Shown piece by piece: positions 1,107-61,693 of a stretch of 64,000 nt of DNA. This DNA is from a virus. Location of the stretch: positions 1-64,000 of IMG/VR virus record IMGVR_UViG_3300020122_000503, one strand, 5' to 3'. A program made the position numbers and the translations under genes. How positions within the stretch are numbered: position 1 is the stretch's first letter; each line of letters starts with the position of its first letter. The notes under the pieces are model-generated. The model was not told the DNA's origin. It searched no databases and saw nothing but the letters and a program-made list of their open reading frames with translations.

Positions 1107-1850
1107 ATGTTTTTCAGGTTCGTTGTAATTTCGATGCTTCTTGCCGGCTGCGGCGAGCCGTTCACGTCGCAGGTGTTTTCGGACACGCCGGGCGACGGAG
1201 GCGCGGTGCCGTTCGGCTCGGGTGGCTCGGGCGGTGAGGCGGAAGACGCGGGGCCCGGCACCGGCGGGCGTGTCGGCCTGCACGCGGGTGGCGCGCCCGG
1301 CACGGGCGGCGCCGGTACAGGTGGCTCGCCGTCGACCGGCGGCGTCGTCGGCTCAGGTGGATCTTCGGCGACTGGCGGCGCAGTTGGTCCTGGCGGAGCG
1401 CCCTCGAGCGGCGGCGCTGGCACTGGCGGTAGCACAGGTGGTGCTCCTGGTTCGGGCGGATCACCCGGTACCGGTGGCGGATCGGGTGGCGCGCCGAATT
1501 CGGGCGGCACACCCGGTTCCGGTGGTGTTGTCGACGCTTGCACGCCCGTCACGCACGACAATGGTCTCGGTCAGACGTGGCAGGACTGCGTGCCGCTCGG
1601 TACTTACAATCAGAGCCAAGCAGTGAAAGCGTGCAAGGCATCGTTTGCCGACTTGTGCGCTCCTGACGCTGACCCTCAATATTCTTGTCAAGGCGTTGGA
1701 GGGGTGGGTGTAATCGTAAACGGTCAGGTGCATCAGTGGGTCTATGTGATCCGACCTGGTGCCGGGGTACAAGCAGGCGACATACTCGAATTTGCGCAAG
1801 GATCGTTTGTGTGCCCTAGTTTTCCTGGCGCAACAGGGCGCTGGCGCTGA
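1107..1850 (+). CDS. lipoprotein with Gly/Ser/Thr linker and Cys-rich C-domain
   Basis: Signal peptide with lipobox LAGC; GGxGG-rich linker; AGGAG RBS. Confidence 0.7.
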   Translation: MFFRFVVISMLLAGCGEPFTSQVFSDTPGDGGAVPFGSGGSGGEAEDAGPGTGGRVGLHAGGAPGTGGAGTGGSPSTGGVVGSGGSSATGGAVGPGGAPSSGGAGTGGSTGGAPGSGGSPGTGGGSGGAPNSGGTPGSGGVVDACTPVTHDNGLGQTWQDCVPLGTYNQSQAVKACKASFADLCAPDADPQYSCQGVGGVGVIVNGQVHQWVYVIRPGAGVQAGDILEFAQGSFVCPSFPGATGRWR

Positions 1851-1851
1851 G

Positions 1852-2541
1852 ATGCGCATCACGATCGGCTCCCCCATCTACGAGCGCCCCGAGCCGGCGT
1901 TCGTGGTGTCCCTCATCGCTCTTCTTGACGAGCTCCGAGAGCGCGGGCACGACGCGGACTGGCGCTACGCGAGCGGCGTGGTCCACTGGGCTCGAAATTA
2001 CGTGATGAACGACATGATGCGGGAAGGGCCTGACGTGCTCGTCCAACTCGACGTCGATCATCAGTTCGAGGCGGAGGACGTCGCCGAAGCGATCGAGCTC
2101 GTAGGCGGCGGGCACGTTCCGATGGTCGGTTTCGCGTGCCTCGGACGGAAACCGAAGAACGCGCACGAGCCCCCGCCGTGGGCGACACCGGTCGTGCGAC
2201 ATCCGATTCGGTCTAGTTTCGAGTACCGAGGTCGGAGATACATCGAGGTCGATGCGGTCGGTGGAGGGCTCCTCGTCTGCTCACGCGGCGCTATCGAGCT
2301 ACTTAGCGCCGACGCTCCACGCCAAAGTTTTGGCGACGCGCCGGTGCTCTTCGATTTTCGCGTCAACGTTTCGGAAGACACGTTCTTCTGCGACAGGTGG
2401 CGCGAGATGGGCGGGAAGATCTACTGCGACATGACGTCGCTCACCGGACACATTGGATCGCGCGTCTATGCGATGAATCCGCAGCACTTGCTCTCGTCGC
2501 TTGAGTTCGAAGAGAACGCCGAATACCAGGTACTCGAGTGA
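1852..2541 (+). CDS. GT-A fold (GT2-like) glycosyltransferase
   Basis: MRITIGSP start, RN motif, DVD (DxD), GGGLL, SEDTFFC. Confidence 0.75.
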   Translation: MRITIGSPIYERPEPAFVVSLIALLDELRERGHDADWRYASGVVHWARNYVMNDMMREGPDVLVQLDVDHQFEAEDVAEAIELVGGGHVPMVGFACLGRKPKNAHEPPPWATPVVRHPIRSSFEYRGRRYIEVDAVGGGLLVCSRGAIELLSADAPRQSFGDAPVLFDFRVNVSEDTFFCDRWREMGGKIYCDMTSLTGHIGSRVYAMNPQHLLSSLEFEENAEYQVLE

Positions 2542-3350
2542 AAATCGCAGTCGTCGTTCCTCGCCCGAAGAGCTACACCCATAGCGCCGCGCTTCTCGAT
2601 CTTGCGGTGCCGCTCGCCGAGGGGCTCAAGGAGCACGGGTTCGACGCCGAGATCACAAGCCAGCCCAGCCGCGATCGCTCGGTCATCGTGGGTCCGCATC
2701 TTCTCAGCCAGATGCCGCCCGAAAACGCGATCCTCTACAACACGGAGCAAATCTCGGCCGAGTCGCCGTGGTTCAGTGGGCCTCTCCTTGATCTCTACCG
2801 ACAGCATCGAGTTTGGGACTACGACCCGATGAACACGACGGCGCTCAAGGCTCTCGGAGTCAACGCCGTGACGGTGCCTCCTGGGTACGCGCCATGTCTA
2901 ACCTGCGTCGAGCGCAAGGCTGACCCGGACATCGACGTGCTCTTCTTCGGTAGCGTGAACGTGCGACGTGCGACGGTTCTGAACGAGCTCGGAAGGAATT
3001 TCAAAATCGCATATGCGTCCGATCTCTACGGCTCCGACCGAGATCGGATGGTCGCTCGCGCCAAGATCGTTCTCAACGTGCATTACTACCAAGCCGCGAT
3101 CTTCGAAGCGGCTCGTGTTTCGTACCTGCTCGCAAATCGAGCGTTCGTCGTCTCCGAGAAGTCGACGCACATGCCGTGGCGCGTTGGCTACGTCGCCATG
3201 CCCTACGACAAGCTGATCGACACGTGCGCCGACTACCTCACGACGCCTGAAGAGCGAGCGCGCATCGCCGAGCTCGGTTTCGAAACGTTTTCGGGGAGCT
3301 CCGCGGCGGAGATGGTGCGCCCGGTTGTGGACGAGCTAGGGACCTGTTAA
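2538..3350 (+). CDS. GT-B fold glycosyltransferase (CgeB/GT1-like)
   Basis: DIDVLFFGS, RAKIVLNVH, FEAARVSYLL, VVSE; GTGA overlap with the upstream gene. Confidence 0.75.
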   Translation: MKIAVVVPRPKSYTHSAALLDLAVPLAEGLKEHGFDAEITSQPSRDRSVIVGPHLLSQMPPENAILYNTEQISAESPWFSGPLLDLYRQHRVWDYDPMNTTALKALGVNAVTVPPGYAPCLTCVERKADPDIDVLFFGSVNVRRATVLNELGRNFKIAYASDLYGSDRDRMVARAKIVLNVHYYQAAIFEAARVSYLLANRAFVVSEKSTHMPWRVGYVAMPYDKLIDTCADYLTTPEERARIAELGFETFSGSSAAEMVRPVVDELGTC

Positions 3351-3360
3351 GTTCTGGCGC

Positions 3361-4353
3361 GTGACATCCACCAATCCGCACACCGGTAAGCCCATCAAGT
3401 TCGGCCGTCTGCCTCGAAAGCCCGGTCTCGTTCATCTTCACTTCTCGGACTTCGTACAGCATGTGAAAATGCCGGCGATCCCGGCGACCTTCGACTACTG
3501 GACGAAGGCGAACGCGGCGCTCCGAGATCTGTACGTAAATGACGAGTTAGGCTGCTGTGGCATCTCCATGATGTTCCACGGTGCGGCAACGTTCACTGGC
3601 AACGCCACGGGCACACCATTCCACGCGACGCGGGACCAAATCATCGCTGCCTACTCGAGCGTTGGCGGGTATGTTCCCGGCGACTCGAGCACCGACAACG
3701 GCTGCGTGCTGACGGACGTGTTCGACTACTGGAAGAAGACGGGCCTACCGAATGGAGAGAAGATCCTCGGGTACGTGTCGATCAACGCTTCTAGTTTCAG
3801 AGACGTGCTCGCGGCGAACTACCTCTTCGAAAACCTCTGCTTCGGCATGGGTCTTCCCGATGCATGGGTGAACCCATTCCCGTCCGACGGCGGGACATGG
3901 GATGCGTCGGGGCCTTCGAACCCGAACAACGGTCACGCCGTTCTTGGATGCTCCGGGAACGCCTCGGGCCCGAATGTCGGAATCTGGGTCGACACGTGGG
4001 GCGAGCGCGTTCGAATCACGCCGGCCGCGATCTCGGGTTACGCCGGAAGCGCGAACGGTGGCGAGCTCTGGGCGGTCATCACACCCGATATTCTCGCCAA
4101 GGGACAACAGAAGGCTCCGAATGGCGTCGCCTGGGGCGATCTCATCGCGGCGTTCAATTCGTTCGGTGGCAACGTGCCGGCGCCACTTCCGCCACCGATT
4201 CCACCGTCGCCCTCGAGCGGCGTCACGCTCTCCGCGGCAGAGGCCGCCGTGCGGCAAGCGTTCGCAAGCGGGCCGTCGTGGTTTTTCGGCTCTGGCAAAG
4301 CCACTTCGATTGCGGTGAAAGCGCTCGAAAGCCTCACAGGCTGGTCGAAATAG
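3361..4353 (+). CDS. papain-like cysteine peptidase
   Basis: NDELGCC (catalytic Cys), DNGC, GHAVLG (His), VDTWG. Confidence 0.65.
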   Translation: MTSTNPHTGKPIKFGRLPRKPGLVHLHFSDFVQHVKMPAIPATFDYWTKANAALRDLYVNDELGCCGISMMFHGAATFTGNATGTPFHATRDQIIAAYSSVGGYVPGDSSTDNGCVLTDVFDYWKKTGLPNGEKILGYVSINASSFRDVLAANYLFENLCFGMGLPDAWVNPFPSDGGTWDASGPSNPNNGHAVLGCSGNASGPNVGIWVDTWGERVRITPAAISGYAGSANGGELWAVITPDILAKGQQKAPNGVAWGDLIAAFNSFGGNVPAPLPPPIPPSPSSGVTLSAAEAAVRQAFASGPSWFFGSGKATSIAVKALESLTGWSK

Positions 4354-28481: not shown

Positions 28482-29672
28482 ATGCCCGGTATCATCGGTT
28501 TTGGGAGAAAAGCGCGCGAGACGTATCCTACCGTTGCGGGCAGATCCGGAACCGGACCGACGGGGCCTTCTGGAACCACAGGCCCCACGGGACCTACCGG
28601 CGTAGCGGGCTCTGCCACTAACACTGGCGCAAGCGGCGCGACTGGGCACACAGGATCAAGCGGACCGACGGGAGCAACGGGCCTTCCCGGATCATCGACG
28701 AACACAGGAGGCACAGGACCGACTGGCAGAACCGGCTCAACAGGACCAACCGGCGCAGCAAGTAACGTCACGGGCCCCACAGGACCCAGCGGATCGACAG
28801 GCTCTAGCGGACCGACGGGACCCGCGGGCGCAGCAAGCACTGTTACGGGCCCCACGGGCGTTGGATCAACAGGAGCCACCGGACCGACAGGAGCGGCGGG
28901 AGTCGCAGGAACAGCAGGCACGGCGAGCACGGGCTCAACGGGATCGACAGGCCCGACAGGAGTCCCTGGATCCGCAACGAACACAGGCGCAACGGGAGAT
29001 ACCGGACCAACCGGTGGACAAGGCCAAATAGGACCCACCGGAAGAACAGGACCGACGGGACCTACAGGACCGACCGGGCTCTCGGGAGCTGCAACGAACA
29101 CCGGAGCAACGGGATCCACTGGACCCACCGGCATCATCGGTCTGACCGGACCAACCGGCTTGTCGGGTTCTGCAACCAACACAGGATCTACCGGAGGCAC
29201 GGGGCCTACAGGACCAACCGGCTTGACAGGCGCTGCTTCCAACACAGGATCCACCGGAGGAACCGGACCCACAGGACCTACAGGTCTTACTGGATCAGCT
29301 TCGAACACCGGCGCTACCGGACCAACGGGTCCGAACCCGTTCGCCACGTTCGTCAGATCAAACAAGAACATGGTGGCGAGCGTCACCGTGCTCGACAACG
29401 ATCTCGCGTGCATCACACCTGTAGCGACAACGCCTACCATCTCTAGCGCGACAGGCGGTTACGTGGGAGTCGATCGAAACGGCGTCGCTCAAATCGTCGG
29501 TGATGGTACCAAGGTGAACGTCTACTGCTACTTCTCCGGTGATGGTGGAGTAACGCCGAGAGCGATGCCTGACATCGTCGCGGGCGATCTCCTCTACTGG
29601 AACGGCAGCATCGCGGGCTCTCAGCTCACGGTGACCGATCGCCTGAACTTCAACTACAACGTCACGACGTAA
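28482..29672 (+). CDS. collagen-like (Gly-X-Thr) fibre protein
   Basis: Long GPT/GAT/GST triplets with SATN interruptions; globular C-domain. Confidence 0.85.
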
Positions 29673-29684
29673 GAGAAAAAGAAC

Positions 29685-30860
29685 ATGGCCGACGGACTAG
29701 TCAAAGTCGCGCAAATGGAGCCGGGTGACACCGGCGACGTCCTCGTGTCAGGTGGCGGTGCCGCAGAATGGCAACCCGGAGTCAACGTCGCTCCTATCGT
29801 CTTCGGTGCAGGCGCGGACGGAGCTCTCGCCGCTGGCTTCGGCGCAATAGTTCTCACTCGAAACACTTACTACTCAAACGTCACTTTCCAAGCCGGCGAT
29901 TCGATCAACACGGCCGGTTTCTATCTCGGCATCTCTGGCGTGCTCGACGCTTCCGCGGCCGGCATGGGCGCGACTGACGGCATCTTCTGTCTTGCAGGAA
30001 ATGGCGGAGCGGGCGCCGCCGCGACTACAGGCGGAACTGGCGGCGCTATCAACAACAACGCCGGCCAAACAATGAGCGGCGGTATCGCCGGATCGGCTGG
30101 AGGCACCGGCACCACCACAAACGGAAATCAAGGCGGCGCTGCTTCGAACACCGGTAACTCTGGCGGTGGAGGTGGCGGCACAAGCGGCAAGGGCGGCAAC
30201 GGTTTGTCGGGCACAGGAGGCGCCACTCGAGCAGGAGGTACGGCAACTGGCGCAGGCGGCACGAACGTCTACGCCATGCCCATAGGCGCGCTCTACGCCG
30301 GTGTTGGTGCTGCTAACGCCATGATCGCAACCATCGGCGGTGCGGCAGGAGCCGGCGGTGGTGGTGGCGCGGGTGACGGGACCGCAGGCCCTGGCGGAGG
30401 TGGCGGCGGCACAGGAGGAGGCACAGCAATCGTAGCCGCTAGAGAGTTTCGACGAAGCGCCTCCACGCCTGCCAATTTCATCAGATGCCCAGGTGGTAAC
30501 GGAGGCGTCGGCGGCACCCCTGCCGGAGGTCAACGAGGTGGTGGCGGCGGAGGATCAGGCGGTGGCGGCGGCGTGCTTGTCTTCATCGCGGGCACCGTCA
30601 CCGGAAGCGGCGCAGCAACGAACGTTCTAAGCGCCAACGGCGGCAGCGGCGGTAACGGCGGAGATGGCACTGGCGCTGCCGGCATCGGCGGCAACGGCGG
30701 CAACGGCGGAACTTCCGGCCAATGCATTTACTACAACATGCAGACAGGCTTCTTCGCCGCACAAGGCCCAAAGAACAATCCGGCAAGCGGACCCACCAAT
30801 GGATCCGGCAACACCCACGGTACAGGTGGGCCCGGAGGCCTCGCCCAAATCACGGTGTGA
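29685..30860 (+). CDS. glycine-rich fibre/adhesin protein
   Basis: FGAGADGAL...LTRNTYYSNVT and poly-Gly loops; paralogous to the C-half of 31757..33754. Confidence 0.75.
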   Translation: MADGLVKVAQMEPGDTGDVLVSGGGAAEWQPGVNVAPIVFGAGADGALAAGFGAIVLTRNTYYSNVTFQAGDSINTAGFYLGISGVLDASAAGMGATDGIFCLAGNGGAGAAATTGGTGGAINNNAGQTMSGGIAGSAGGTGTTTNGNQGGAASNTGNSGGGGGGTSGKGGNGLSGTGGATRAGGTATGAGGTNVYAMPIGALYAGVGAANAMIATIGGAAGAGGGGGAGDGTAGPGGGGGGTGGGTAIVAAREFRRSASTPANFIRCPGGNGGVGGTPAGGQRGGGGGGSGGGGGVLVFIAGTVTGSGAATNVLSANGGSGGNGGDGTGAAGIGGNGGNGGTSGQCIYYNMQTGFFAAQGPKNNPASGPTNGSGNTHGTGGPGGLAQITV

Positions 30861-30863
30861 GGC

Positions 30864-31760
30864 ATGCAGGTAGGCCCCTTCCCTTGGCTAGGCACGCCGA
30901 CCGTACCCCCCTTGAAGGGTTGCGTAATTCAGACGTTCCCAGGGCCTTACACCGTGGGCGCGCAAACGTTCACGCCTCCGGAGCTTTCAGATCCCGTGTC
31001 GGCCACCTCCATGGCGGCTCTCGGCGCCGCGTGGTTTCTAAATTACCTGCCGAGCTCGTCGATACGAACGACCATCCCGTTCGTTCCGATGATTTTCTCT
31101 CCTTCTTACAAGAGCGCTCAGAACCTTCTAGTCGCTTCCAGATACAAAGTCATTCTCGGGTACAACGAACCGGACAACGGACCGCCTCAAGCGAACACGA
31201 CGGTCGCCCAGGCCTTATCCGACTGGGCGGACTTCGAAGCCGCAGCCGACGCTATTCCGGGTTGTCGATTGGGCGCTCCTGTGATGGCGGTCAACTCCGA
31301 CACACCGGGCAGTTGGCGTTACGATTTCATGAACGGAATCGTTCCGGCAACCGGTAAGCCTCCGAGAGTGGATTTCGTACCCATCCACTTCTACACAAAT
31401 CAATTCACTAACCCTGCTGCTTCCGCGGCAACGCTCCGAAGCATCATCGTTCAAGTCCACGCGGCTTACCAAAAACCTGTGTGGATAACAGAGCTCGGTG
31501 CGACCAAGTTCACCGGATCCGTACCGACTCAGGAGTATCCGACTAGCACTGCCGAGACTTCTGCGATCATACAAGCCTTCATGACCACCATACTTGCCGC
31601 TAATCTCGTCGTTGAACGAGTGTCGTGGTATCCGTACGTGGTCCCCGCCGGCTTTCCTCCGGGAGGCGCAGGGAACGTTGCAAACGTCGGTCTCGCTGAT
31701 CTCACGGGAGCTCTCACGGCACCCGGCATCACCTTTAGAGATTCAGGTAACGTCGGATGA
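30864..31760 (+). CDS. GH-A clan glycoside hydrolase (Glyco_hydro_cc/GH128-like)
   Basis: [35 protein letters not shown]. Confidence 0.8.
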
Positions 31761-33754
31761 TCGGAAACATTTGTGGAGGCTCAACCGGACCGACAGGCCC
31801 TTCTAGTGGTCTGACGGGACCAACGGGCCCAAGCGGCTCCACAGGACCTACCGGGACCCCCGGTAGCGCCGTCAACACCGGAACCACGGGATCGACAGGA
31901 CCCACCGGAATAGCGGGGCCTACAGGATCGACAGGACCTACCGGAATAACAGGGCCCACAGGATCGACAGGGCCCACGGGAATAACGGGACCTACGGGCT
32001 TATCAGGCGGCTCGACGGGCACAGGCGCTACAGGGCCAACCGGTCCTTCCGGAGGCCCTATTGGTCCTACTGGACCGACCGGTAACACAGGCCCAACAGG
32101 AGCAGACGGAGCCCCGTCAACAGTAACAGGACCGACAGGCAACACGGGATCGACTGGACCAACAGGAGCAGCAAGCACTGTCACAGGTCCAACAGGATCA
32201 ACGGGCAACACCGGAGCAACCGGCAACACCGGATCAGTCGGAGCGACGGGAGCACAAGGGCCAACCGGCAACACAGGAAGCACCGGATCGACGGGACCAA
32301 CCGGATCAGTCGGATCGACCGGTAACACCGGATCGACAGGCAACACAGGATCGACGGGGCCAACTGGATCAGTCGGGCCGACTGGCAGCACTAGCAGCAC
32401 AGGCAACACCGGATCAACAGGTAACACTGGCCCGACCGGCAACACCGGAGCCGCGGGCGCGCAAGGTCCAACGGGATCAACAGGAAACACAGGCAGCACC
32501 GGATCGACGGGCAACACAGGGCCCACCGGATCCACCGGAAACACCGGATCGACCGGACCAACTGGAAACACCGGATCGACGGGCAACACCGGTAGCACCG
32601 GATCAACCGGGCCGACCGGACCAACCGGATCAACTGGAAGCAGCGTCACAGGCCCGACCGGGTCTTCGAGCCTCGCCGAAAACGCGATGGTGTTTGCGCT
32701 CTTCGGTGACGGATCAGACGGCGGTCTCACAGCGTCGAGCGGTACGACAACGCTCACGAAAGACACGAACTACTCGTCGATCACGCTTTCCGGCACAGCC
32801 AAAATCGATTGTGCGGGCTATGTGCTCCGATGCTCCGGCACGTGCGATCTCACGAACATGCCCGCTGGAACAATTTTTCGTTCCGTGGTCGCAGGAGGAA
32901 ACGGCGCCGCGGGCGGTGGCGCAGGAAGCGCAGGTACGATCACAGGCAACACCGCCGGCACGACGATCGGCGCGACTGCCACTGCGGGAACTGCTGGCGG
33001 CGCGGGAGGTACCGCAGGCGGCTCACAAGCCGCAGCGCCCAGCGCCACATCGTACTCATCAGGCGGCTCAACCGCGACAAGCGGCGCGGGCGGTTCCGGA
33101 AATAACGGCGCCAACGCAGGCGGTCTAACTCGTGCCGGCATCACCGTCACTCGCGTAGGCGCATCGCTGATCCATTCGTTGCTGTTTGCCTCAGCCTTTT
33201 CAGCGTCCGGGTACATCACTGCGACAGGCTCTGCTAACGAGTTCTACGGCGGAGCAGGCGGCCCCGGAGGCGGCGGCGGAGGTGGCGACGGCTCTGCCGG
33301 AGGCGGAGGCGGAGGCGGAGGCGCGGGAGCGCTCGGAATTTATTTTGCAGCACGAACTTTGGTAGTTACCGGCGCCGCTGCTGGAGTCATTCAAGCTAAA
33401 GGTGGCGCTGGCGGTAACGGCGGCACCCCTGCTGCCGGCAACAGAGGCGGCGGTGGCGGTGGCAGCGGTGGCGGTGGCGGTTTCGTGTGTTGCATCTTTG
33501 GAACGGTTACGGGAACCGTCACCGGAGGCGTGTCGACCGACGGCGGCGACGGCGGCAACGGTGGAAACGCAACAGGCAACGGAGTCGGCGGCAACGGCGG
33601 CGGCGGAGCTGCCGGCGGTCACGTCTACGTCGCGAACCTAAGCGCAAACACTCAATCAACCGCAACGGGAACTACAGGTACTGCGGGCGGTGCGGCATCC
33701 GGAACCACCGGAGGCACCGGTCAAACAGGCGAACAGATCCGAGTGAATCTGTAG
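31757..33754 (+). CDS. collagen-like plus glycine-rich fibre protein
   Basis: About 300 aa of GPT/GST/GNT triplets, then FGDGSDG and a Gly-rich domain. Confidence 0.85.
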
Positions 33755-53377: not shown

Positions 53378-55768
53378 TCACCACGAGATGCGGCCGACGA
53401 ACCACGGGGTGCCGCCCCCTTGCTTGGGTTTGTGGTCGAACCGTCGCCCCCCGACGTTCTTCTTTCGGTACTTCCGGAGCTGCATGCTGACGAGCTTCGT
53501 CGTGAGCTTGTCGGGCGTGCATTCGCAGAGCTCAGCGAGCGCTTCTTTGAGTGCGGCGTGGGCGAACGCCCCGACGTGCATCTCTGAGAGCACGTCGGAA
53601 ACGAGCATGGGTTTGCCGAGTTTCTCCCATTCGATGAGCACGCGCTCTAGAACCCCCAGCTCCGAGTCGCCGCTCTCGACGAGCTCTTTGCGGCCCTCGA
53701 TCGGATCCGGCATGCCCGCCCACACGAGCGCGCCCCTCACGATTCGGCTCCATTGCTCGAAGGAGCCCCACGACGTCAGATTTTGGTTGGGACAACCTGC
53801 GGCGAAGTATCCGCGAAGCACGGTGAGGACGGCGCTCGCGAGCTTCGGTCGTTCGCGGTGTACGTGTGGAAGGATCGGATCGTATTTGAAACCGGTTCGA
53901 TGCTCGGGGTGCTCGAGTGTGGTCTCTAGTTGAACGTGAAGCGCGCGACCGACGAGCTCGTTCGACAAGATGAGGTTTTGCGCTGTCACGAGCCAGAGTG
54001 CTCGCATCGGCATCGCCACCATTTCGCTGACTCCGAGTCGGCGTTCTAGAACGGCCATGCTCGTGATTACGCCTGCTAGCGCTGAAGAATCGAGAGCTCC
54101 TTCGACGTTGTCGAGAAGGACGATAGGGTCGCCGCTGATTGCGAGCGACAAGATCCGTTTTCGCATCTCTTCTTCGTTCGTTTTCGCCGTTCTAGGAAGA
54201 GATCTACCGGAATAAATTTCTCCGATGATGTCTGCGAGATAGGTTGCTCCGACTCGGCGCGCGTTCTTGTCGAGAACACCGAACGGCACGCAGCCGTCGA
54301 TTGTCGGGCGAGCGAACGGTGTAAAGAGCAAAGCCATCCACGCGGAGAAGTGTTCCGAGCTCACAAATGGAAAATCTTGAACGACGTCGTACAAAGTCGC
54401 GATGGCCGTCGTCGCGTCGTCCAAAGTAGGATTGGACGGGATTGGTGGAAAGTTGACGTTCGGTTCGTAGAAAAGTCCCGTCGTGCGATCGTAGCCGGGT
54501 GTGTCGAGCACTGTTCCGTCTGGACGAAGCACCGGGCACTCGGTGATGCCTTCCAAAAACTTGACCCCGGGCCATTCTCCGCGGCAATGAAGCTCCGAGA
54601 GAGGATCGTCCGGAACCCCGCACGAGACTAAAGAGGAATCACCGGTGCTCGTCGTTTTCCAACGCTGAAACGCGCAAGCGTGCGAGATGAGCCCTCTGGT
54701 TCTCGCTTTCGACATCTCGGAGATGATTGGAGCGTTTGCTTCTCGGCGGATCTCGTCCTCTTCTTTGCTCTTATTGGGGTCGCGAAGGATCTGCACGAGC
54801 TTCCAGCCTCTGTTGAACACGTTCGGCAAAGCCGCAAGCGCCGGGAGCATCTGATCTGCGACTTCGAGCTCGTCGAAGCCGACGATGACGGCTACGCGGT
54901 CGCCCGTCGGTTCTTTTCTGGCCGGGAGCCATTTGCGAGCGCGTGTGATGAGCTTCTTCCCGCCGACGCCGCCCCCGAGCGGCCGATCGGCGATGAGTTC
55001 GATGACGCGGTTCCAGCCGGTGACAGGTTCGCCCGAGTCGAGCTTTTCTTTCGTTCCACGAACGGTCGCGGCGCGTTTCTGGGCGGCGTCCGAGCCACCA
55101 ACCCATGCCACGAGAAGAACGAATAGCTCGGTGTGTTCGACGGGCCATCCGTCTCGAAGAAGTCCGCCCCCGAGCGCGAGGCAGAAGTCGTGACGTCCTT
55201 TTTTGGGGAAGTACCGAGCAAGAAGACACGCCGCTGCGAGTACGCCAACGGCGGCTTCTAAGACGGTTCGTTCGATGCGCGGGATCTGCTCGGGGTTGGC
55301 GCCGTCTTCGAAGTCGATGAATTCGCCGCTGACGTGGTGGCTTCCAGGGAACACGGTCTGAACGCCGCCCGTCCGGAGCTCGACGATCGTTTTGCCGGCG
55401 CCGTCGATGTTCGGATCTTCGTACTTGATGTGCTTCGGGACGTCAGAGAAATAGAGCCAGTGCGACGCGCGCTTCGATGCGCGTCCGAACCGCCCCGGTG
55501 TTGGCGGTAAAAGATGCGGTGCGAGGTAGAGCGCTTCGGGACAATCGATGTCGACGTCGCAAAGGCCTTTCGATGGTTCGCCGAGAATGATCCCGATGTT
55601 TTGAGGGACGCCGTTGAAGTAGTGCGGCGCGGTCTCGTGCGTGATCCGTAGGTTCTTCCAGTCCGGGATCGTCGGTCCTTTTTCTCGATACGGAACGGGG
55701 ATTGGGCACAGCCCTAGGTTGATGTAGTCGATCGCGAGATCGAAAACCGAGGGCGGTGATGACGACAC
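53378..55768 (-). CDS. bifunctional primase-polymerase fused to a helicase-like domain
   Basis: GLCPIPV..KGP..W, NIGIILG, DVDID, HWLYF; C-terminal LLDNV Walker B with a degenerate Walker A. Confidence 0.8.
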   Translation of the reverse strand: MSSSPPSVFDLAIDYINLGLCPIPVPYREKGPTIPDWKNLRITHETAPHYFNGVPQNIGIILGEPSKGLCDVDIDCPEALYLAPHLLPPTPGRFGRASKRASHWLYFSDVPKHIKYEDPNIDGAGKTIVELRTGGVQTVFPGSHHVSGEFIDFEDGANPEQIPRIERTVLEAAVGVLAAACLLARYFPKKGRHDFCLALGGGLLRDGWPVEHTELFVLLVAWVGGSDAAQKRAATVRGTKEKLDSGEPVTGWNRVIELIADRPLGGGVGGKKLITRARKWLPARKEPTGDRVAVIVGFDELEVADQMLPALAALPNVFNRGWKLVQILRDPNKSKEEDEIRREANAPIISEMSKARTRGLISHACAFQRWKTTSTGDSSLVSCGVPDDPLSELHCRGEWPGVKFLEGITECPVLRPDGTVLDTPGYDRTTGLFYEPNVNFPPIPSNPTLDDATTAIATLYDVVQDFPFVSSEHFSAWMALLFTPFARPTIDGCVPFGVLDKNARRVGATYLADIIGEIYSGRSLPRTAKTNEEEMRKRILSLAISGDPIVLLDNVEGALDSSALAGVITSMAVLERRLGVSEMVAMPMRALWLVTAQNLILSNELVGRALHVQLETTLEHPEHRTGFKYDPILPHVHRERPKLASAVLTVLRGYFAAGCPNQNLTSWGSFEQWSRIVRGALVWAGMPDPIEGRKELVESGDSELGVLERVLIEWEKLGKPMLVSDVLSEMHVGAFAHAALKEALAELCECTPDKLTTKLVSMQLRKYRKKNVGGRRFDHKPKQGGGTPWFVGRISW

Positions 55769-55873
55769 GCGGGGAGGGCCTCCAAGAACGTGATCGGTCG
55801 AGGATTCGCGAAGGCGCGAAAATCTCGGAACACGGACCCTAGACCTTTCGTTCCGTCCTCGTCAAGAGGGGGT

Positions 55874-55902
55874 TTGCAACGTCCGTAAACATTTGTTATG
55901 GT
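55874..55902 (+). promoter_or_regulatory. sigma70-type promoter
   Basis: TTGCAA, 17 nt spacer, TGn-TATGGT; 9 nt before the ATG at 55912. Confidence 0.55.
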
Positions 55903-55911
55903 CTGCCTTCG

Positions 55912-56094
55912 ATGGCCCGAGAAAAAGAAACCGACGTCATGGTTGCCACGCGAGTGAGCAAGTCGCTCTACGTCAAGATCTTGAAACGCCAACGGGAGTT
56001 GAAGAAGCTCACCGGCATCGAACCCAGCGTTAGTGCCGTCTTACGCGCGATGATTGCAGAAGCGGCGTCTGGTCGTCGTCATCAGGCGGCGTGA
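55912..56094 (+). CDS. small RHH-like regulator
   Basis: VATRVSKSLY...SVSAVLRAMI. Confidence 0.6.
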   Translation: MAREKETDVMVATRVSKSLYVKILKRQRELKKLTGIEPSVSAVLRAMIAEAASGRRHQAA

Positions 56095-56546
56095 ACGTGA
56101 AGCGAAAAAGTATTTACTTTATTCAACGAGGCGTCGACGGACCAATCAAAATAGGAGTCGCTGCCGATCCTTATGAACGTCTTTCGTCACTTCAGACAGC
56201 TTCTCCGGAGAAGTTGATTTTGCTTGGGTGTGTTCGTGGTTCCGAGACCGGTATGCATCAAAAATTTCGAAAGCACCGCATTTCTGGAGAGTGGTTCAAG
56301 CCGCACAAAGACGTTCTTCGATTTGTCCGTTTGCGTACTTTTGTGCCATCGCGCCGACGTGCTGGCACAATAATCAAGGTTCTGGTTCCGGATCATCTTC
56401 AGGATCCTATTGAACAAGAACGCAAACGTATGAGTTTTGCGAGAGAAAAAGAAACTAAGGCGAGTGCGGTCGTCCGAGCGTGTCTCGAGGAGTGCCTGCT
56501 CGGTAAACCCCGGCCTGTTCTCTCTGTCTCTAGAGAAAAAACTTGA
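56091..56546 (+). CDS. GIY-YIG (T5orf172/MUG113-like) protein with RHH-like tail
   Basis: IYFIQ, IKIGV, RLSSLQTASP, HQKF, GEWF. Confidence 0.8.
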   Translation: MNVKRKSIYFIQRGVDGPIKIGVAADPYERLSSLQTASPEKLILLGCVRGSETGMHQKFRKHRISGEWFKPHKDVLRFVRLRTFVPSRRRAGTIIKVLVPDHLQDPIEQERKRMSFAREKETKASAVVRACLEECLLGKPRPVLSVSREKT

Positions 56547-56579
56547 CGGTTTGATTGGTGTGAGCGAGATTGCTGCGAG

Positions 56580-58040
56580 ATGGGTGCGCTCTTCGTTTCG
56601 GCGTCCGAGATTGAGCTGTACGACCTGTGCCCCAGGAAATGGGCGTTTGCATATTTAGAAGGGCTGCGCCCGCCTCCGAACGAGTCCGCTGCTCTCGGCA
56701 CGCGCGTGCACAAGATTCTAGAGCAGTGGCTCAAGGACGGAACGGCTCCTGACCTACTAACGAACGAAGGCGAGATCGCTGCGAGCGGTCTTCATCTTCT
56801 GCCGCCGCCTCGGACGCCGACGCTTGTTACTGAGGAGCAGTTCAGCTTCACCTCTAGAAGGGCTTGGTATTCGGGATACAAAGATTTTCGATACCGCGAC
56901 GCAAACGGGCTCCTACACGTGGGGGATCACAAAACTACAAAATCTGCCACTTGGATGAAGACGACGGACGAGATTCTGGCTCACCCCCAAGCTTTGATCT
57001 ACAGCGTCGATGAGTTCTTTCGAAACCCGCAGGACGATCGTCTGTCGCTCGATTGGATCTACTATAAGACGACCGGCTCACGAAAAGCCGAACCTCGTTT
57101 TCAGATCGTGACCAAGCAAACGGTCGCTGAGATGTTTTTCGAGCACGTCGATCCAGTCGCCGGGCAGATCACGGCGCTCCACGACACGCCGCCTGGCACG
57201 TCCGCGCTCGAGTTCCCTCCCGACTTCCGAGCCTGTGAGGCTTTCGGAGGTTGCGCGTTCCTTTCGATTTGTAACCCAACCCCAACCCAGAGAATTCAAG
57301 CAACCATGACCCAAGCCGGACTTTCCCTCACTGACAAACTTAAGGCGATGAAGAACAACCGAGCTCCGAGCCCGATCCATCCCCCGGAGGCGTTTCAGGC
57401 GCCGGCCCCGGCGGTGGCAGCTCAGATGCCTCAGATGCCCGCAATGGCGCCTCAGGCTTCGCCGATGCAATTCACCCTTCCGACGCCTCAGGGCGCGCCC
57501 GTGGCGCCGCAGGCGGTCGTGCCGGTGCAGCAACAGTTCTATCCTCCTGTCGAGGCTCAGGCGGCGCCACAGGTGCCCTTTCAGCCTGTGGCAGGGCCAG
57601 GGATGGCTCCTCAGGTGCCTTTCCAACCTGTGCCCCAACCCCCGCCCGCACCGGCAGCCACGCCCGAGCCCCCGGCCGCTCCCAAGAAGGCGCGAGGACG
57701 CCCTAAGGGTTCGACGGCCGAGGCCGCCTTGAGCAACGGCGGTTTCATACTCTACGTCGGCTGCGCACCGATCGGTTGCAACGTGACGAACGCTCTCGAG
57801 TACGTGAACGCTGCGCACGATCAGTTGAGAGCAGCGCGTGGTGTTACTCACTACCGGGAAATGGAATTCGGCAAAGGACCGGGCGAGCTCTGTGCGGCGC
57901 TCGAGGCGCTCCTCGCGCTCTGTGAAGGAACGCCGAACGCGCCCACGGGTGACGTCGTGCTCGGCGGCGCGCAGATCGAGGAAGACACGGCGTCGGTTTG
58001 GTTCTCGAAGGCGGCAAAAATCGTGAGAGCGTTTCGATGA
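56580..58040 (+). CDS. PD-(D/E)XK (RecB/Cas4-like) exonuclease with Pro/Gln linker
   Basis: SASEI..Y..CPRKW, GTRVH, GYKD, DHKTT, QALIY, C...C...C cluster. Confidence 0.8.
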   Translation: MGALFVSASEIELYDLCPRKWAFAYLEGLRPPPNESAALGTRVHKILEQWLKDGTAPDLLTNEGEIAASGLHLLPPPRTPTLVTEEQFSFTSRRAWYSGYKDFRYRDANGLLHVGDHKTTKSATWMKTTDEILAHPQALIYSVDEFFRNPQDDRLSLDWIYYKTTGSRKAEPRFQIVTKQTVAEMFFEHVDPVAGQITALHDTPPGTSALEFPPDFRACEAFGGCAFLSICNPTPTQRIQATMTQAGLSLTDKLKAMKNNRAPSPIHPPEAFQAPAPAVAAQMPQMPAMAPQASPMQFTLPTPQGAPVAPQAVVPVQQQFYPPVEAQAAPQVPFQPVAGPGMAPQVPFQPVPQPPPAPAATPEPPAAPKKARGRPKGSTAEAALSNGGFILYVGCAPIGCNVTNALEYVNAAHDQLRAARGVTHYREMEFGKGPGELCAALEALLALCEGTPNAPTGDVVLGGAQIEEDTASVWFSKAAKIVRAFR

Positions 58041-58106
58041 ATTGAAACATCGGACGTTCGTCGAACAGTCGGATGCACGAGCATCAATCAAAAAGGAAAA
58101 AGGTAA

Positions 58107-58760
58107 ATGGGAAAAGTAGCTTTAAAACCAGCGGAGACCACGAAGGTTCCCGCGCTGATCGAAGTTCCGGATATCGAAACGCAGATCGTACCCTTTTACT
58201 TGAAGGGGTTGAGCCCACTCTTGGTCAACAACTTCAGCGAGAAGAGCAAGGCTCAGCTCGAAGGGGAGAGCACTGGCAAAATCAACAAGGGAAAACTTGG
58301 TGCCAAAGGAAAGCCTCCTCGCGATCCGGAAGCGGAGTTTCAAGCTGCTCGCGTCTTAAACGACGATGGCCGCGATTGCATCCCGGCGCGGTGGATTAAG
58401 CAAGCATTGGTCACTGCCGCCGGCATGTCCGACGTCAACATCGATCAGAAGGTCGTGCAGCGTACATTGTTCGTTCGAGGGGACTTGATCCCCATCGAAT
58501 GCAAAAAGGGTCCGAGGATGCGTACCGACTGGGTACGACGAGGCCGGTGGAACGCAAAGGTGCCGATGCAGTGCTACCGAGCGGAGTTCGTCGACTGGTC
58601 GATCAAGATTCAGATCGAGTTCGAACCTAAGCTCATTTCGCATGCTTGGTTGGTTTTCTTGGTGCGCCGCGCTGGGCTCTCGGTTGGGCTCTGTGAGTGG
58701 CGTCCCGAGAAGAAAGGCGAGATGGGCCGGTTCGACATTGTGATGTCTCCGGCGAAGTAA
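58107..58760 (+). CDS. stand-alone RAMP/Cas7-like RNA-binding protein
   Basis: LKGLSPLLVN (first strand), IPARWIKQAL (RAMP IPxxxxKGxxR-like), C-terminal Gly-rich loop AGLSVGLCEWRPEKKGEMGRF. Confidence 0.7.
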   Translation: MGKVALKPAETTKVPALIEVPDIETQIVPFYLKGLSPLLVNNFSEKSKAQLEGESTGKINKGKLGAKGKPPRDPEAEFQAARVLNDDGRDCIPARWIKQALVTAAGMSDVNIDQKVVQRTLFVRGDLIPIECKKGPRMRTDWVRRGRWNAKVPMQCYRAEFVDWSIKIQIEFEPKLISHAWLVFLVRRAGLSVGLCEWRPEKKGEMGRFDIVMSPAK

Positions 58761-58764
58761 ACGA

Positions 58765-59120
58765 GCAGTAGCCGATGCGAGCTGAGACGACATCGAGACG
58801 AGCCGATGCGACTAGATGCGAAACGAATCGCGGTAGTCGACCTGAGCCGAGCCGAGAGGCGACGACCCGAGACGAATCGACACGAGACGAACCGCAGTAA
58901 CCGATTCGACCCGAGCCGAACTGATGCGAGCCGACACGACTGGACTCGAGGCGAAACGAGTCGCAGTAACCGAATCGAGCCGAGCTGATGCGAGCTGAGG
59001 TGAGCCGATCTGAACCGAAGCGAGAGGCAGTAACCGATACGAGGCGACTCGAACCGAGCCGACACGAACCGATTCGACTCGATACGATTCGAACGGCAGT
59101 ACACGAACCGAGCCGCAGGA
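58765..59120 (+). ncRNA. pentamer-coded repeat array (five units plus one partial); candidate guide-RNA precursor
   Basis: GCRGTA at 58765, 58830, 58894, 58963, 59027, 59096; 57 NN+triplet pentamers (47 CGA, 7 TGA, 3 other). Confidence 0.75.
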
Positions 59121-59126
59121 GAAAAA

Positions 59127-59693
59127 ATGACAGCAACCGCGCCGACTGTACGCGAATTTGTGATCGGAAACCGCGACGGTTTTCGTGGCGTCAATAAAAA
59201 AGACGTCGCGCCTTTCGTGGCGGTTCTGTCTGACATCGCCAAAAAGATAGGACCGCCAGGAGAGATCCCTGCTTTCGAATGGCGCAAAGAGCTTCTGGCT
59301 AGAGCTAAACCTAAAGACAGCCCGATACACAACAAGTTCACGTGGGACGACAACATCGCGGGGGAGAAGTATCGCCATCACCAGGCGGCTTACTACATTC
59401 GCGCTTTCGACTTTCAGTACGTGGACGAGCGTGGGAAAGCCGCCAAGAAGGTTCGGTGGCTCCAAACGATCAAACTAGTGAAATCAGACGGGCAAGCGCA
59501 GCAAAGAGCGCCGATGACCATGCCGGACGTGCTCTCGGACGAGCGCGCTCTTGAAAACGTAGTCGAAACAGCATTGGGCGAAATGCAGTCTTGGGTTCGT
59601 AGATACGAAGCTTTGGAAAGCGTCGCCAAGCTCGCGCCGATCTTCCGCGCCGCAAGGAAAGTGCTGGCTAAGACTGTTGTGCTAAAAAAGTAA
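59127..59693 (+). CDS. conserved phage protein; putative accessory of the RAMP/array locus
   Basis: SPIHNKFTWDDNIAGEKYRHHQAAYYIR; its RBS is formed by the last array delimiter. Confidence 0.65.
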   Translation: MTATAPTVREFVIGNRDGFRGVNKKDVAPFVAVLSDIAKKIGPPGEIPAFEWRKELLARAKPKDSPIHNKFTWDDNIAGEKYRHHQAAYYIRAFDFQYVDERGKAAKKVRWLQTIKLVKSDGQAQQRAPMTMPDVLSDERALENVVETALGEMQSWVRRYEALESVAKLAPIFRAARKVLAKTVVLKK

Positions 59694-59699
59694 AAATTC

Positions 59700-61484
59700 G
59701 TGTCTGACCCCATCGACCTCTCCAACATCTTCGCCGCCGTTGCCGAAGCAACCAACGGCGCGAGGCGAGGCACCGCTCTCGGTAAGATCCGAGAAGCCGA
59801 AGGCGTGCGGCACACGCCCGAGCTCGACAGGATCATCATGATCCCACGGCGCGTGCCGCTCACGCCCGACGAGGAAGCGGAACGGATCGATCTGCTCACG
59901 AACCATCTCCGCACGCCGGGCGGAACGATGCGGCTCCGCTCGGTGCAGGCCCAAGCTCTCTGCGAGATGCACGACTACCAAGGGCTCTTCGGACCGATTC
60001 GAGTCTCCGGTGGGAAGACCCTCATCTCCTTGCTAGCGCCGCTCGTACTCGAATCTCCACGGCCGATGCTTATCACCCCAGCGGCGCTCATCGAAAAAAC
60101 AAGAACCGAAGCTAGGAAGTACGCTCAGCACTGGCAGCTCCCGCCGCTCCTTCACATGGCGAGCTACCAGGCTCTCGGTCGCGTCTCCGGCGCGGAGACG
60201 CTAGAGAAGGCGAACCCTGACCTCATCATCTGTGACGAGGCGCACAAGCTCAAGAACAAGCGCGCCGCCGTCACGAAGCGCGTCGCGAGGTACATGCACG
60301 ACCACCCAGAGACGCGCATGGTCATCTTGACCGGCACGATTTCGAAGCGAAGCTTGCACGACTTCGCGCACCTCTTGCTCTGGTCCTTGAAGCTCCGGAC
60401 GCCGCTTCCACGACACTGGACCGAGCTAGAGGCGTGGGCGCTTGCGATCGACGAGCGACCGAACGCGATCGTTCCGCCTCTTCACCCAGGGGCGATCTTG
60501 ATGCTTGCGACCGAGGAAGACACCGGTGACGTGACGCAACGCGCTCGCATCGCCGTTCGTAGGCGGATCAACGACACGCCTGGTGTCGTGACGGCTTCGG
60601 GTGAGGGTTGCAACGTCAGCCTTCGTGTTCAAGGTCATGTTGTCGAAACGACGGAAGTGACGACCGCTGCGTTCGAAAGACTCCGTGATCGGTGGGAAAC
60701 GCCCGACGGCTGGCCCTTGAGCGACGGGTTTGCGATCTGGCGTCACGCTCGCGAGCTCGCGCTCGGTTTCTTCTACAGATGGGAGATTCGACCGCCTGAC
60801 GAGTGGCTCGAAGCGAAGAAGGCATGGTCCGCGTTCTGTCGCAAGATCCTGAAGACTAATCAACGCCGGCTCGACTCCGAGATGCAGGTCGCACTCGCGT
60901 GCAAGGACCATCCCGAGTGGTATGGCGACCAGGAATACAAGGCGTGGGTCGCGATTCGGGATTCGTTCAAGCCGAAGACCGTCGCGGTGCCGTTCGACGA
61001 CTCCGTTCTCGAGTACGTGACGAAGTGGGCCGAGAAGCACGGTGGTCTCGTTTGGTGTGAGCACATTGACTTCGCTGAGCGTTTGTCGGCGAACACGGGG
61101 CTACCTTACTTTGCGGGCGAGGGCTTAGACGCGAATGGAAATTCGGTTGAGAGCTTCGACGGCACGTGCGCTATTCTTTCGATCGAGGCAAACCGAGAGG
61201 GGCGGAACCTGCAACGCTTCTCGCATAGCCTCGTTGCCTCGCCGATGCAGCAGGGTGACCGGTGGCAGCAGCTTCTCGCGCGTACGCACCGCGACGGGCA
61301 AGAGGCGGATGAAGTGATCTGTGATGTCGTGATTTCGTGTGCCGAACACGTAGACGCGATGCGCATCATACAGAGCGACGCCCAGTACCAAGAGGACATC
61401 ACCGGGGACCGGCAGAAACTTCAGCTCGCGGACATCATTGTCCCGAACACGATGCACTTGAAAGGAGCGGTTTGGAACAGATGA
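59700..61484 (+). CDS. superfamily 2 helicase
   Basis: LRSVQ, SGGKT, ICDEAH, LTGT, EGRNLQ, QLLARTHRDGQ. Confidence 0.85.
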   Translation: MSDPIDLSNIFAAVAEATNGARRGTALGKIREAEGVRHTPELDRIIMIPRRVPLTPDEEAERIDLLTNHLRTPGGTMRLRSVQAQALCEMHDYQGLFGPIRVSGGKTLISLLAPLVLESPRPMLITPAALIEKTRTEARKYAQHWQLPPLLHMASYQALGRVSGAETLEKANPDLIICDEAHKLKNKRAAVTKRVARYMHDHPETRMVILTGTISKRSLHDFAHLLLWSLKLRTPLPRHWTELEAWALAIDERPNAIVPPLHPGAILMLATEEDTGDVTQRARIAVRRRINDTPGVVTASGEGCNVSLRVQGHVVETTEVTTAAFERLRDRWETPDGWPLSDGFAIWRHARELALGFFYRWEIRPPDEWLEAKKAWSAFCRKILKTNQRRLDSEMQVALACKDHPEWYGDQEYKAWVAIRDSFKPKTVAVPFDDSVLEYVTKWAEKHGGLVWCEHIDFAERLSANTGLPYFAGEGLDANGNSVESFDGTCAILSIEANREGRNLQRFSHSLVASPMQQGDRWQQLLARTHRDGQEADEVICDVVISCAEHVDAMRIIQSDAQYQEDITGDRQKLQLADIIVPNTMHLKGAVWNR

Positions 61485-61693
61485 AAGCAGCGATGCTCTA
61501 TCACAGCACGGACGATTGGTGTCACCTTTGCGGGGAGCGTACAGCACCTACAGTAGACATTTGGTACCCGGATAATGCTGAACACGACAGTCCGGTGGAG
61601 CCAGGACCGCTTCATAGTGGACGTCATTACATTCGGATTTGCAGCACGTGTGCGTGTCGCATACAAAACGTAGCTGCTAAGCCGACTCGTTGA
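61481..61693 (+). CDS. small Zn-finger protein
   Basis: MKAAML start in an ATGA overlap; CHLC...CSTC. Confidence 0.5.
   Translation: MKAAMLYHSTDDWCHLCGERTAPTVDIWYPDNAEHDSPVEPGPLHSGRHYIRICSTCACRIQNVAAKPTR

Follow-up and report, generated by a model that had tools for sequence, protein, structure and literature searches.

The stretch of DNA analysed here, hereafter the window, comprises 64,000 nucleotides (positions 1 to 64,000 of the IMG/VR virus record IMGVR_UViG_3300020122_000503, a phage genome of 73,506 bp with an estimated completeness of 96%), and it carries an array in which fixed (C/T)GA triplets alternate with variable dinucleotides (NN). Does this array hold messages, and if so, what reads them? 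An initial annotation had taken it for a non-contiguous guide that skips one target base per pentamer and might thereby ignore codon wobble positions. Our analysis leads in the same direction, and we conclude that the array most probably encodes the guide RNAs (vrRNAs) of a VIPR (Viral Interference Programmable Repeat) system carried by the phage, with an unusual CGA anchor.

The pentamer array occupies the entire gap between two genes on the same strand and begins 5 nt after the stop codon of the upstream one (Table 1). Its GC[AG]GTA delimiters stand at positions 58765, 58830, 58894, 58963, 59027 and 59096, so that successive ones lie 65, 64, 69, 64 and 69 nt apart. Once a single extra base in unit 1 is removed, the five full units hold 57 complete pentamers, among which 47 read NNCGA and 7 read NNTGA, and the remaining three end in AGA, GGC and GGA, respectively. 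Position 4 of the pentamer is G in all 57 and position 5 is A in 56. Our recount thus reproduced the delimiter spacings, the triplet counts and the NN strings reported earlier. The pattern is also confined to this place: four YGA triplets at period 5 matched 28 times in the window, always on the + strand and within the array (0.64 expected; at most 4 in 100 shuffles), and a five-triplet version matched 21 times in the whole 73,506-bp record, again only in the array, with no match for the control pattern. Tandem Repeats Finder returned only rows of period 5, 10 and 15 for it. The units parse as CAGTA + (NNCGA)n + NN(C/G)GC, with one C common to adjoining units, which yields 13, 13, 14, 13 and 14 pentamers per unit followed by a four-pentamer stub. 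Contigs from three soil metagenome runs reproduced the array (X1, 58652–59078, and X5, 58707–59047, without differences; X12, 58909–59059, with one), and it is therefore no assembly artefact.

Table 1. Features of the vipr–array–accessory gene locus, in window coordinates
Feature	Position	Strand	Basis or remark
vipr, 217-aa RAMP (Cas7/Csm3-like), PHROG 4652	58107..58760	+	AF2 model, Foldseek, VIA-align, hhalign
Putative staggered vrRNA array, five full units + stub of NN(C/T)GA pentamers	58765..59126	+	delimiters, pentamer counts
Unit 1, CAGTA ... ATCGC, 13 pentamers + one inserted base	58766..58831	+	
Unit 2, CGGTA ... ACCGC, 13 pentamers	58831..58895	+	
Unit 3, CAGTA ... GTCGC, 14 pentamers	58895..58964	+	
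Unit 4, CAGTA ... GAGGC, 13 pentamers	58964..59028	+	
Unit 5, CAGTA ... ACGGC, 14 pentamers	59028..59097	+	
Stub unit, CAGTA CACGA ACCGA GCCGC	59097..59116	+	directly before AGGAG ribosome-binding site
AGGAG ribosome-binding site of 188-aa gene	59117–59121	+	3' of stub unit
vap-like accessory gene, 188 aa, PHROG 15946	59127..59693	+	conserved H68/F71/W73 ('FEWDD') motif, no known fold

Little else was recognizable in the array itself. An Rfam search of 58000–60000 at E ≤ 10 gave no meaningful match, and the units have neither a 3' tail nor a ribozyme. RNA folding of the array yielded a z score of −1.7 for the + strand, the transcribed one, which is not convincing evidence of structure, and of −3.0 for the − strand. 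A scan of 55700–61600 revealed no promoter-like site, and nothing resembling a terminator lies within the array. On the minus strand every frame is open across the array, in three overlapping ORFs (58610–59356, 58633–59136 and 58812–59465, of 248, 167 and 217 aa) that seem to be a side effect of a pentamer lattice with few stops and might be annotated as genes in error.

VIPR has been described as a phage relative of CRISPR and as a minimal RNA-guided DNA-recognition system, proposed to be a CRISPR ancestor (bioRxiv 10.64898/2026.04.26.720920, PMC13142463). As the preprint presents it, Vipr is a small ancestral RAMP with an RRM core, a glycine-rich loop and a thumb, usually accompanied by one vap gene, and the vrRNA consists of 9–16 YNNGG pentamers with a fixed GGY and a hypervariable NN; the NN pair with double-stranded DNA with a 1-nt skip, usually at the codon wobble position, and the reported natural targets are mostly satellite phages and prophages (bioRxiv 10.64898/2026.04.26.720920). 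A comparable arrangement is drawn there for class 1 CRISPR, in which protein copies periodically line the guide and the thumb interrupts pairing at fixed intervals. Seven types are distinguished, with NNNGG, YNNNG and NNNNG as alternative repeats, and arrays are laid out as hammerhead ribozyme-interspersed, as single vrRNAs, or as staggered units with a 1-nt overlap, of which the first two layouts, not the staggered one, were confirmed by sRNA-seq (bioRxiv 10.64898/2026.04.26.720920). The systems of SUSP1 and of a P. fulva prophage belong to type II, and RNA expression, RNP formation, dsDNA binding, the 1-nt skip and repression were shown for them; in SUSP1, perturbation of the GGY motif abolished silencing (the legend lists AGY, GAY, GGA and AAY) (bioRxiv 10.64898/2026.04.26.720920). 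Our literature search beyond this preprint found nothing further.

The 217-aa product of the upstream gene was compared with Vipr at the levels of structure and sequence profile. Its AlphaFold2 model, predicted from an alignment (A1) of 35 collected homologs, reached a pLDDT of 85.7, and Foldseek found 79 PDB hits at E ≤ 1e-3 (E 4.5e-6 for Csm3); among the matches listed, all were Csm3, Cas7, Cmr (including Cmr6) or Cas7-11 chains, from type III and type VII CRISPR effector complexes. Superposition on the Csm3 chain 9g9f_D by VIA-align gave Z 10.8 and rmsd 3.9 over 153 aligned residues, nearly the full length of both. Seven invariant residues in A1 (G190, G194, W198, R199, G204, G207 and F209) form a glycine-rich C-terminal motif, and an hhalign comparison of the A1 profile with gp040 of Escherichia phage SUSP2, the comparator used here rather than SUSP1, gave a probability of 97.4% (E 1.3e-11) over the C-terminal half, including this motif. 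The SUSP2 gp040 gene is itself flanked by YNNGG arrays with 3' tails, which is the layout that the preprint gives for the sister phage SUSP1. The model and the profile comparison thus show a predicted RAMP fold and homology to SUSP-type Vipr for the 217-aa protein. In GenBank phages, tblastn with the window's Vipr touched 156 records, with matches in Gordonia and Mycobacterium phages at 30–34% identity and weaker ones in Felixounavirus and Suspvirus phages; among viral contigs only two relatives were found (L001 and L002, both without a clear array), and among MAG contigs only three, all distant loci. Pfam held no family for either the 217-aa or the 188-aa protein, and PADLOC reported nothing for either.

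The 188-aa gene downstream of the array has same-strand homologs in 65 of 87 loci, which makes it a widespread accessory protein family without a known fold. The H68/F71/W73 motif was read from an alignment of the family (A2). Its AlphaFold2 model is well defined (pLDDT 88); Foldseek gave no PDB match at E ≤ 1e-3, a wide VIA-align search matched only a C-terminal helical hairpin (Z ≤ 5.4), and neither method found a recognizable DNA-binding fold. We found no relation to SUSP2 gp039, and a viral-contig search with the 188-aa protein returned no relative.

Around the vipr–array–vap module lie genes for a primase/polymerase, a T5orf172 protein, a PD-(D/E)XK nuclease, an SNF2-type helicase and endonuclease VII. 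The nuclease and the helicase do not recur beside the arrays of other loci, whereas vipr and the 188-aa gene do. A blastn search of 56500–61500 against GenBank phages gave no match, and 20 soil metagenome runs each contain at least half of the sampled words of 58000–60000. The nuclease gene (56580–58040, + strand) sits just 5' of vipr and is absent beside Vipr in other loci; its product has a long middle region rich in Pro, Ala and Gln and an N-terminus with weak Cas4-like matches (PADLOC E 0.002 and 0.009). The cumulative GC skew of the genome has its minimum at about 52–53 kb, near a divergent junction of primase and replication genes. Elsewhere on the + strand, at 28482–33754, collagen-like (Gly-X-Y) tail-fibre genes contain many tandem repeats of 9, 18, 27, 36, 45 and 63 nt.

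Subsequently, we examined whether the pairing of a Vipr gene with a pentamer array extends beyond this phage. Among 80 metagenome loci that encode relatives of the 217-aa protein, a strict period-5 test restricted to non-homopolymer dinucleotides detected arrays in 30, and the same test with GG included detected them in 54, on the vipr strand; in 375 kb of other viral DNA used as a control, 8 period-5 arrays were found, 3 of them in L047, a distant VIPR locus. The fixed triplet varies by locus (GGA, GGC or GGT tallied) and is always read on the strand of the RAMP gene, and the CGA anchor occurs only in the window and in L047 among the loci compared. Units elsewhere read CAGGT + (NNGGT)n + NNGGC or CAGTA + (NNGGA)n + NNGGC, likewise with one overlapping C, and their length ranges from 9 to 14 pentamers. 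Across loci, the GCAG[GT] delimiters are spaced at 49 (18 times), 54 (30), 59 (12), 64 (17), 69 (7) and 74 nt (2), so that 86 of 136 intervals follow 5n+4 when only 49–74 nt are counted, which matches the staggered arrays with 1-nt overlap of the preprint.

The anchor also follows the phylogeny of the protein. On a maximum-likelihood tree of 37 Vipr proteins, the anchor triplet required 8 changes, compared with a mean of 18.9 after shuffling, and none of 200 shuffles was as low. The window's Vipr is sister (support 99/96) to six GGA loci with the CAGTA...NNGGC unit frame, and the occasional variation within the GGA arrays of this sister clade falls on the first anchor base, which suggests a route for the shift from G to a pyrimidine.

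We then asked whether the NN strings behave as messages. In nine marine loci whose Vipr proteins are nearly the same, 39 of the 48 units are distinct, and most pairs of loci have no unit in common. In 15 near-identical unit pairs, 25 of 34 differences fall on NN, against 40% expected if they were evenly spread, which together with the unshared units indicates cassette turnover plus point change at NN instead of slippage. Variation of NN by neutral slippage among related viruses, which the initial annotation had named as evidence against a guide, was accordingly looked for among relatives and not seen, cassettes being swapped instead. The composition of the strings points the same way: the window's 62 NN dinucleotides were fitted best by positions 1 and 2 of codons in the phage's genes (−241.4 bits, with a model trained on 37 of the phage's own genes), compared with −248.0 bits for a uniform model and −249.0 for the dinucleotides of the genome, while the remaining registers and the antisense readings scored −250 to −260, a fit that lends modest support to wobble skipping.

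Targets were sought at two scales. In the phage's own genome, with the array masked, no site on either strand matched at least 80% of NN under gaps of 0–3, which extends to the whole genome the by-eye impression that the window held no target, and which parallels the preprint's controls, where no self-target of at least 80% NN was found either (bioRxiv 10.64898/2026.04.26.720920). When 836 kb of fetched loci were added to the own genome, again with gaps of 0–3 and on both strands, no site reached 80% of NN either, and no maximum exceeded the highest of its 20 NN-order shuffles; the matches above shuffled background for which the initial annotation had proposed to look were therefore not obtained in this sequence set. 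Scans of IMG/VR relied on exact seeds of nine NN under the 1-nt skip rule for units 2–5, which covers a small search space, and yielded three loci for unit 2 (19, 20 and 22 of 24 positions), two for unit 3 (21 and 20 of 26), two identical loci for unit 4 (21 of 24) and none for unit 5. An unrelated 18-base control pattern (the delimiter plus four CGA pentamers) also gave 2 chance loci inside coding sequence, which places the seed-hit rate at background. Over the five distinct hit sequences, NN outside the seeds matched at 13 of 32 bases, and three of the five lay clearly out of the coding frame, a unit-3 hit in a spanin-like ORF being the only one clearly in frame with wobble skipping. All of these hits (L221–L227) were judged to be chance matches.

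Compared feature by feature with the published systems, the locus resembles VIPR closely. A small phage RAMP with a glycine-rich loop is encoded beside a single accessory gene, here the 188-aa gene. Both have same-strand pentamer arrays built from a constant triplet and hypervariable NN in alternation, at 13–14 pentamers per unit in the window; the array is intergenic and flanks vipr, as in 54 of 80 related loci; and unit boundaries are set by the staggered 1-nt overlap (spacings 64/69) that the preprint also reports. The strict GGY form is not found. The window's anchor is (C/T)GA, or ANNYG in the YNNGG frame; of the alternative repeats that the preprint's text names (NNNGG, YNNNG and NNNNG only), it fits just the relaxed NNNNG class of the preprint's Methods. 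Each of these VIPR features is therefore present as judged from sequence and predicted structure, with the reservation that the anchor fits the relaxed consensus only. Since perturbing GGY in SUSP1 abolished silencing, according to the preprint's account, the window's Vipr must read a different anchor. Further differences from the SUSP1 and P. fulva systems as described are that the window lacks their structured 3' tail of about 40 nt, its units abutting and starting with a CAGTA head, and that its array lies between vipr and vap, the latter encoding a protein unrelated to SUSP2 gp039. Within the VIPR kind, the locus is thus marked by its variant anchor, its staggered tail-less layout and its uncharacterized accessory protein.

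The array grammar, gene–array linkage, clade-specific anchors and cassette-like unit turnover observed here can be placed in a model in which the array would be transcribed with its flanking genes on the + strand and cleavage of the transcript, probably at the C that adjoining units have in common (...NN(C/G)G[C]AGTA...), would release RNAs of about 65–70 nt, or 13–14 pentamers. Copies of the 217-aa Vipr would line each RNA, one per pentamer, gripping (C/T)GA and exposing the two variable bases, and the 12–13 NN of a unit would base-pair to double-stranded DNA, with one target base left out after each NN; the DNA would belong to a phage or mobile element in competition with this one. By analogy, this pairing would repress the competitor, and the 188-aa protein may assist the action of Vipr and vrRNA. 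Expression, RNP formation, dsDNA binding, the 1-nt skip and repression are carried over to this locus from the SUSP1 and P. fulva systems, and boundary processing, recognition of the CGA anchor and the kind of target are what we infer for the locus itself. The non-contiguous guide skipping one base per pentamer, put forward from the letters of the window, agrees with the published VIPR mechanism as measured on GGY systems, and at the locus it is supported by the upstream Vipr-type RAMP, the anchor/NN grammar, the staggered units, the accessory gene, the cassette turnover and the codon-like NN composition. On the other side stand the searches, which found no natural target in the sequences covered, the departure of the anchor from GGY, a staggered layout that the preprint did not confirm by sRNA-seq, and an accessory protein in which no DNA-binding fold was recognized.

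Other readings of the array were weighed against this one. The RNA might be bound by Vipr without serving as a guide, acting as a decoy or sponge (for instance for the VIPR proteins of rivals), providing a scaffold, or serving as the operator through which downstream translation is autoregulated. Such a role would suit an array for which no target appeared in the sequence space searched, whose stub unit runs straight into the ribosome-binding site of the 188-aa gene and whose anchor departs from GGY; however, 13–14 repeats per unit and cassette turnover are what is expected of guides, the NN composition is codon-like, and the native vrRNAs of two systems have been shown to be guides (bioRxiv 10.64898/2026.04.26.720920), and we regard it as unlikely. 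Considerably less probable is a replication element acting at the DNA level, such as a set of origin iterons or a partition site that would be bound in double-stranded form. The surrounding primase/polymerase, nuclease and helicase genes and a GC skew minimum not far upstream would agree with this, but the GA-, GC- and GT-anchored arrays are read on the strand of the RAMP gene in all loci, only vipr and the 188-aa gene travel with them while the nuclease and helicase do not, an AT-rich unwinding region is absent, and an RNA lattice accounts for a period of 5 bp whose phase is reset at 5n+4, which helical repeat spacing does not. Origin iterons in particular were discarded in view of this strand specificity and exclusive association with the RAMP gene. 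Least probable of all seems a reading as a neutral pentanucleotide microsatellite that arose by slippage, or else as a segment of a gene on the minus strand. Most of the 90 distinct CGA-pentamer stretches in IMG/VR are indeed simple microsatellites, and the three minus-strand ORFs of 167–248 aa do cross the array; yet 15 kinds of NN are found in its 57 pentamers with the (C/T)GA anchor kept in 54, the same grammar with other anchors is conserved beside one protein family across distant clades, and the ORFs are open in all three frames, as in any stop-poor pentamer lattice. The earlier remark that the array is unlike a homogenized microsatellite holds in the light of this NN diversity and of the swapped cassettes, rather than slippage products, in near-identical relatives.

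The array was also compared with known RNA-based systems. In the trp leaders of Bacillus, TRAP sites consist of fixed triplets with 2-nt spacers that are read by repeated subunits, in a single set of about 11 (G/U)AG triplets; the spacers carry no message, and the protein is not a RAMP. The window's array shares with them the fixed triplets separated by 2 nt, but its triplet is CGA, it has 5.3 units of 13–14 repeats, and its flanking proteins have no Pfam hit. A TRAP-like ring-protein site was rejected because unit sizes vary between 9 and 14 pentamers across loci, which argues against a ring of fixed size. The ToxI repeats of type III toxin–antitoxin systems are near-identical. About 5.5 tandem units directly 5' of a same-strand gene of about 190 aa recall this arrangement, but the window's units differ at every NN, which led us to reject such an RNA, and neither PADLOC nor Pfam matches the 188-aa protein. 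With class 1 CRISPR, the 217-aa protein shares the RAMP fold of the Csm3/Cmr4/Cas7 backbones; in contrast, the window's array repeats every 5 nt instead of every 6, would pair only 2 bases at each step, and belongs to a phage. Tandem Repeats Finder showed no repeat–spacer structure in the array, comparison of 59 ORFs with PHROGs gave no Cas family, and PADLOC on 7 neighbouring genes returned only the weak Cas4-like matches of the nuclease. Two-tetrad G-quadruplexes are impossible with the CGA anchor.

If the array is a vrRNA array, the locus extends VIPR to an uncultured 73.5-kb soil phage with contigs in at least 20 soil metagenome runs, and it offers a clean example of the staggered layout that the preprint left unconfirmed by RNA sequencing. 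A natural CGA variant with a GGA sister clade permits a direct comparison of protein and anchor. It is possible, and we put it at slightly short of an even chance, that the VIPR anchor is evolvable, a Vipr whose sister lineage reads NNGGA having shifted to NN(C/T)GA and L047 independently using NNCG(A/G). Should the reported intolerance of SUSP1 Vipr to anchor change hold, nature would then contain mutually orthogonal Vipr/anchor pairs, and pairs free of cross-reaction would serve as orthogonal programmable DNA binders. Under the same assumption, tail-less staggered arrays with nothing but a CAGTA head would mature through cleavage at the one base that neighbouring units share, needing neither a ribozyme nor a structured handle, and the geometry of target skipping could deviate from the 1-nt rule.

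Several loci that surfaced in the comparison illustrate the range of such arrays. In L047 (IMG/VR, 70,284 bp), a distant Vipr gene at 1628–2221 (hhalign probability 90%, E 1.6e-6) is flanked, within 1350–3090, by five short NNCG(A/G) arrays, each with a conserved AAGACGAAACGGCT-like tail; a T run follows two of the five tails, and a different 188-aa gene comes next. This locus seems to represent an independent VIPR that is CG-anchored and divided into separate transcription units, and since its Vipr is very distant from that of the window, the CG-type anchor would have arisen at least twice. In L034, the gene for a Vipr relative of 26% identity comes just 3' of a purine-rich tract that has a period of 5 and measures about 600 nt; this tract (reverse strand, about 75–670 of 3195) is non-coding, mixes NNGGA with NNCGA and contains CAGTAACGGA. 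An IMG/VR scan for six in-phase CGA triplets, which returned L034, gave mostly plain microsatellites and a few arrays with diverse NN. Among the IMG/VR sequences, taken with 300-nt flanks, L110 (300–372) and L118 (274–338) each hold one CGA array with diverse NN, 14 pentamers long in L110 and 13 in L118. A GC-rich hairpin comes after the array in both, accompanied in L118 by a T run, and the two arrays look like lone vrRNAs. A search of L110, L118, L059, L047 and L021 with the A1 profile gave no match, and even the L047 Vipr, detectable by hhalign, was missed by it. In L072, a low-GC phage, eleven in-frame CGA pentamers lie inside a gene at 3000–3130 and are followed by TAACTGATACTG-type repeats, which may be an in-gene replication origin and appear to have no connection to VIPR.

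L140 (an 86.7-kb metagenome contig, of which 8.6 kb were examined) carries a Vipr of 41% identity, a vap gene and a long CAGTA/NNGGA array, and it matches many ORFs of the window's 9.5–25 kb region; it seems to be related to the window's phage, with the VIPR module beside different genes. GGC arrays lie beside Vipr homologs in Mycobacterium phage Saal (L216, 2152–2334) and Gordonia phage ODay (L217, about 3095–3252). In Gordonia phage UmaThurman (L215), a staggered GGC/GGT array at 3113–3443 lies 3' of the Vipr homolog gp39, and the annotated gp40 (CDS 3131–3454) is probably not a gene because it lies almost wholly on this array, an example of how easily pentamer arrays are mis-annotated as genes.
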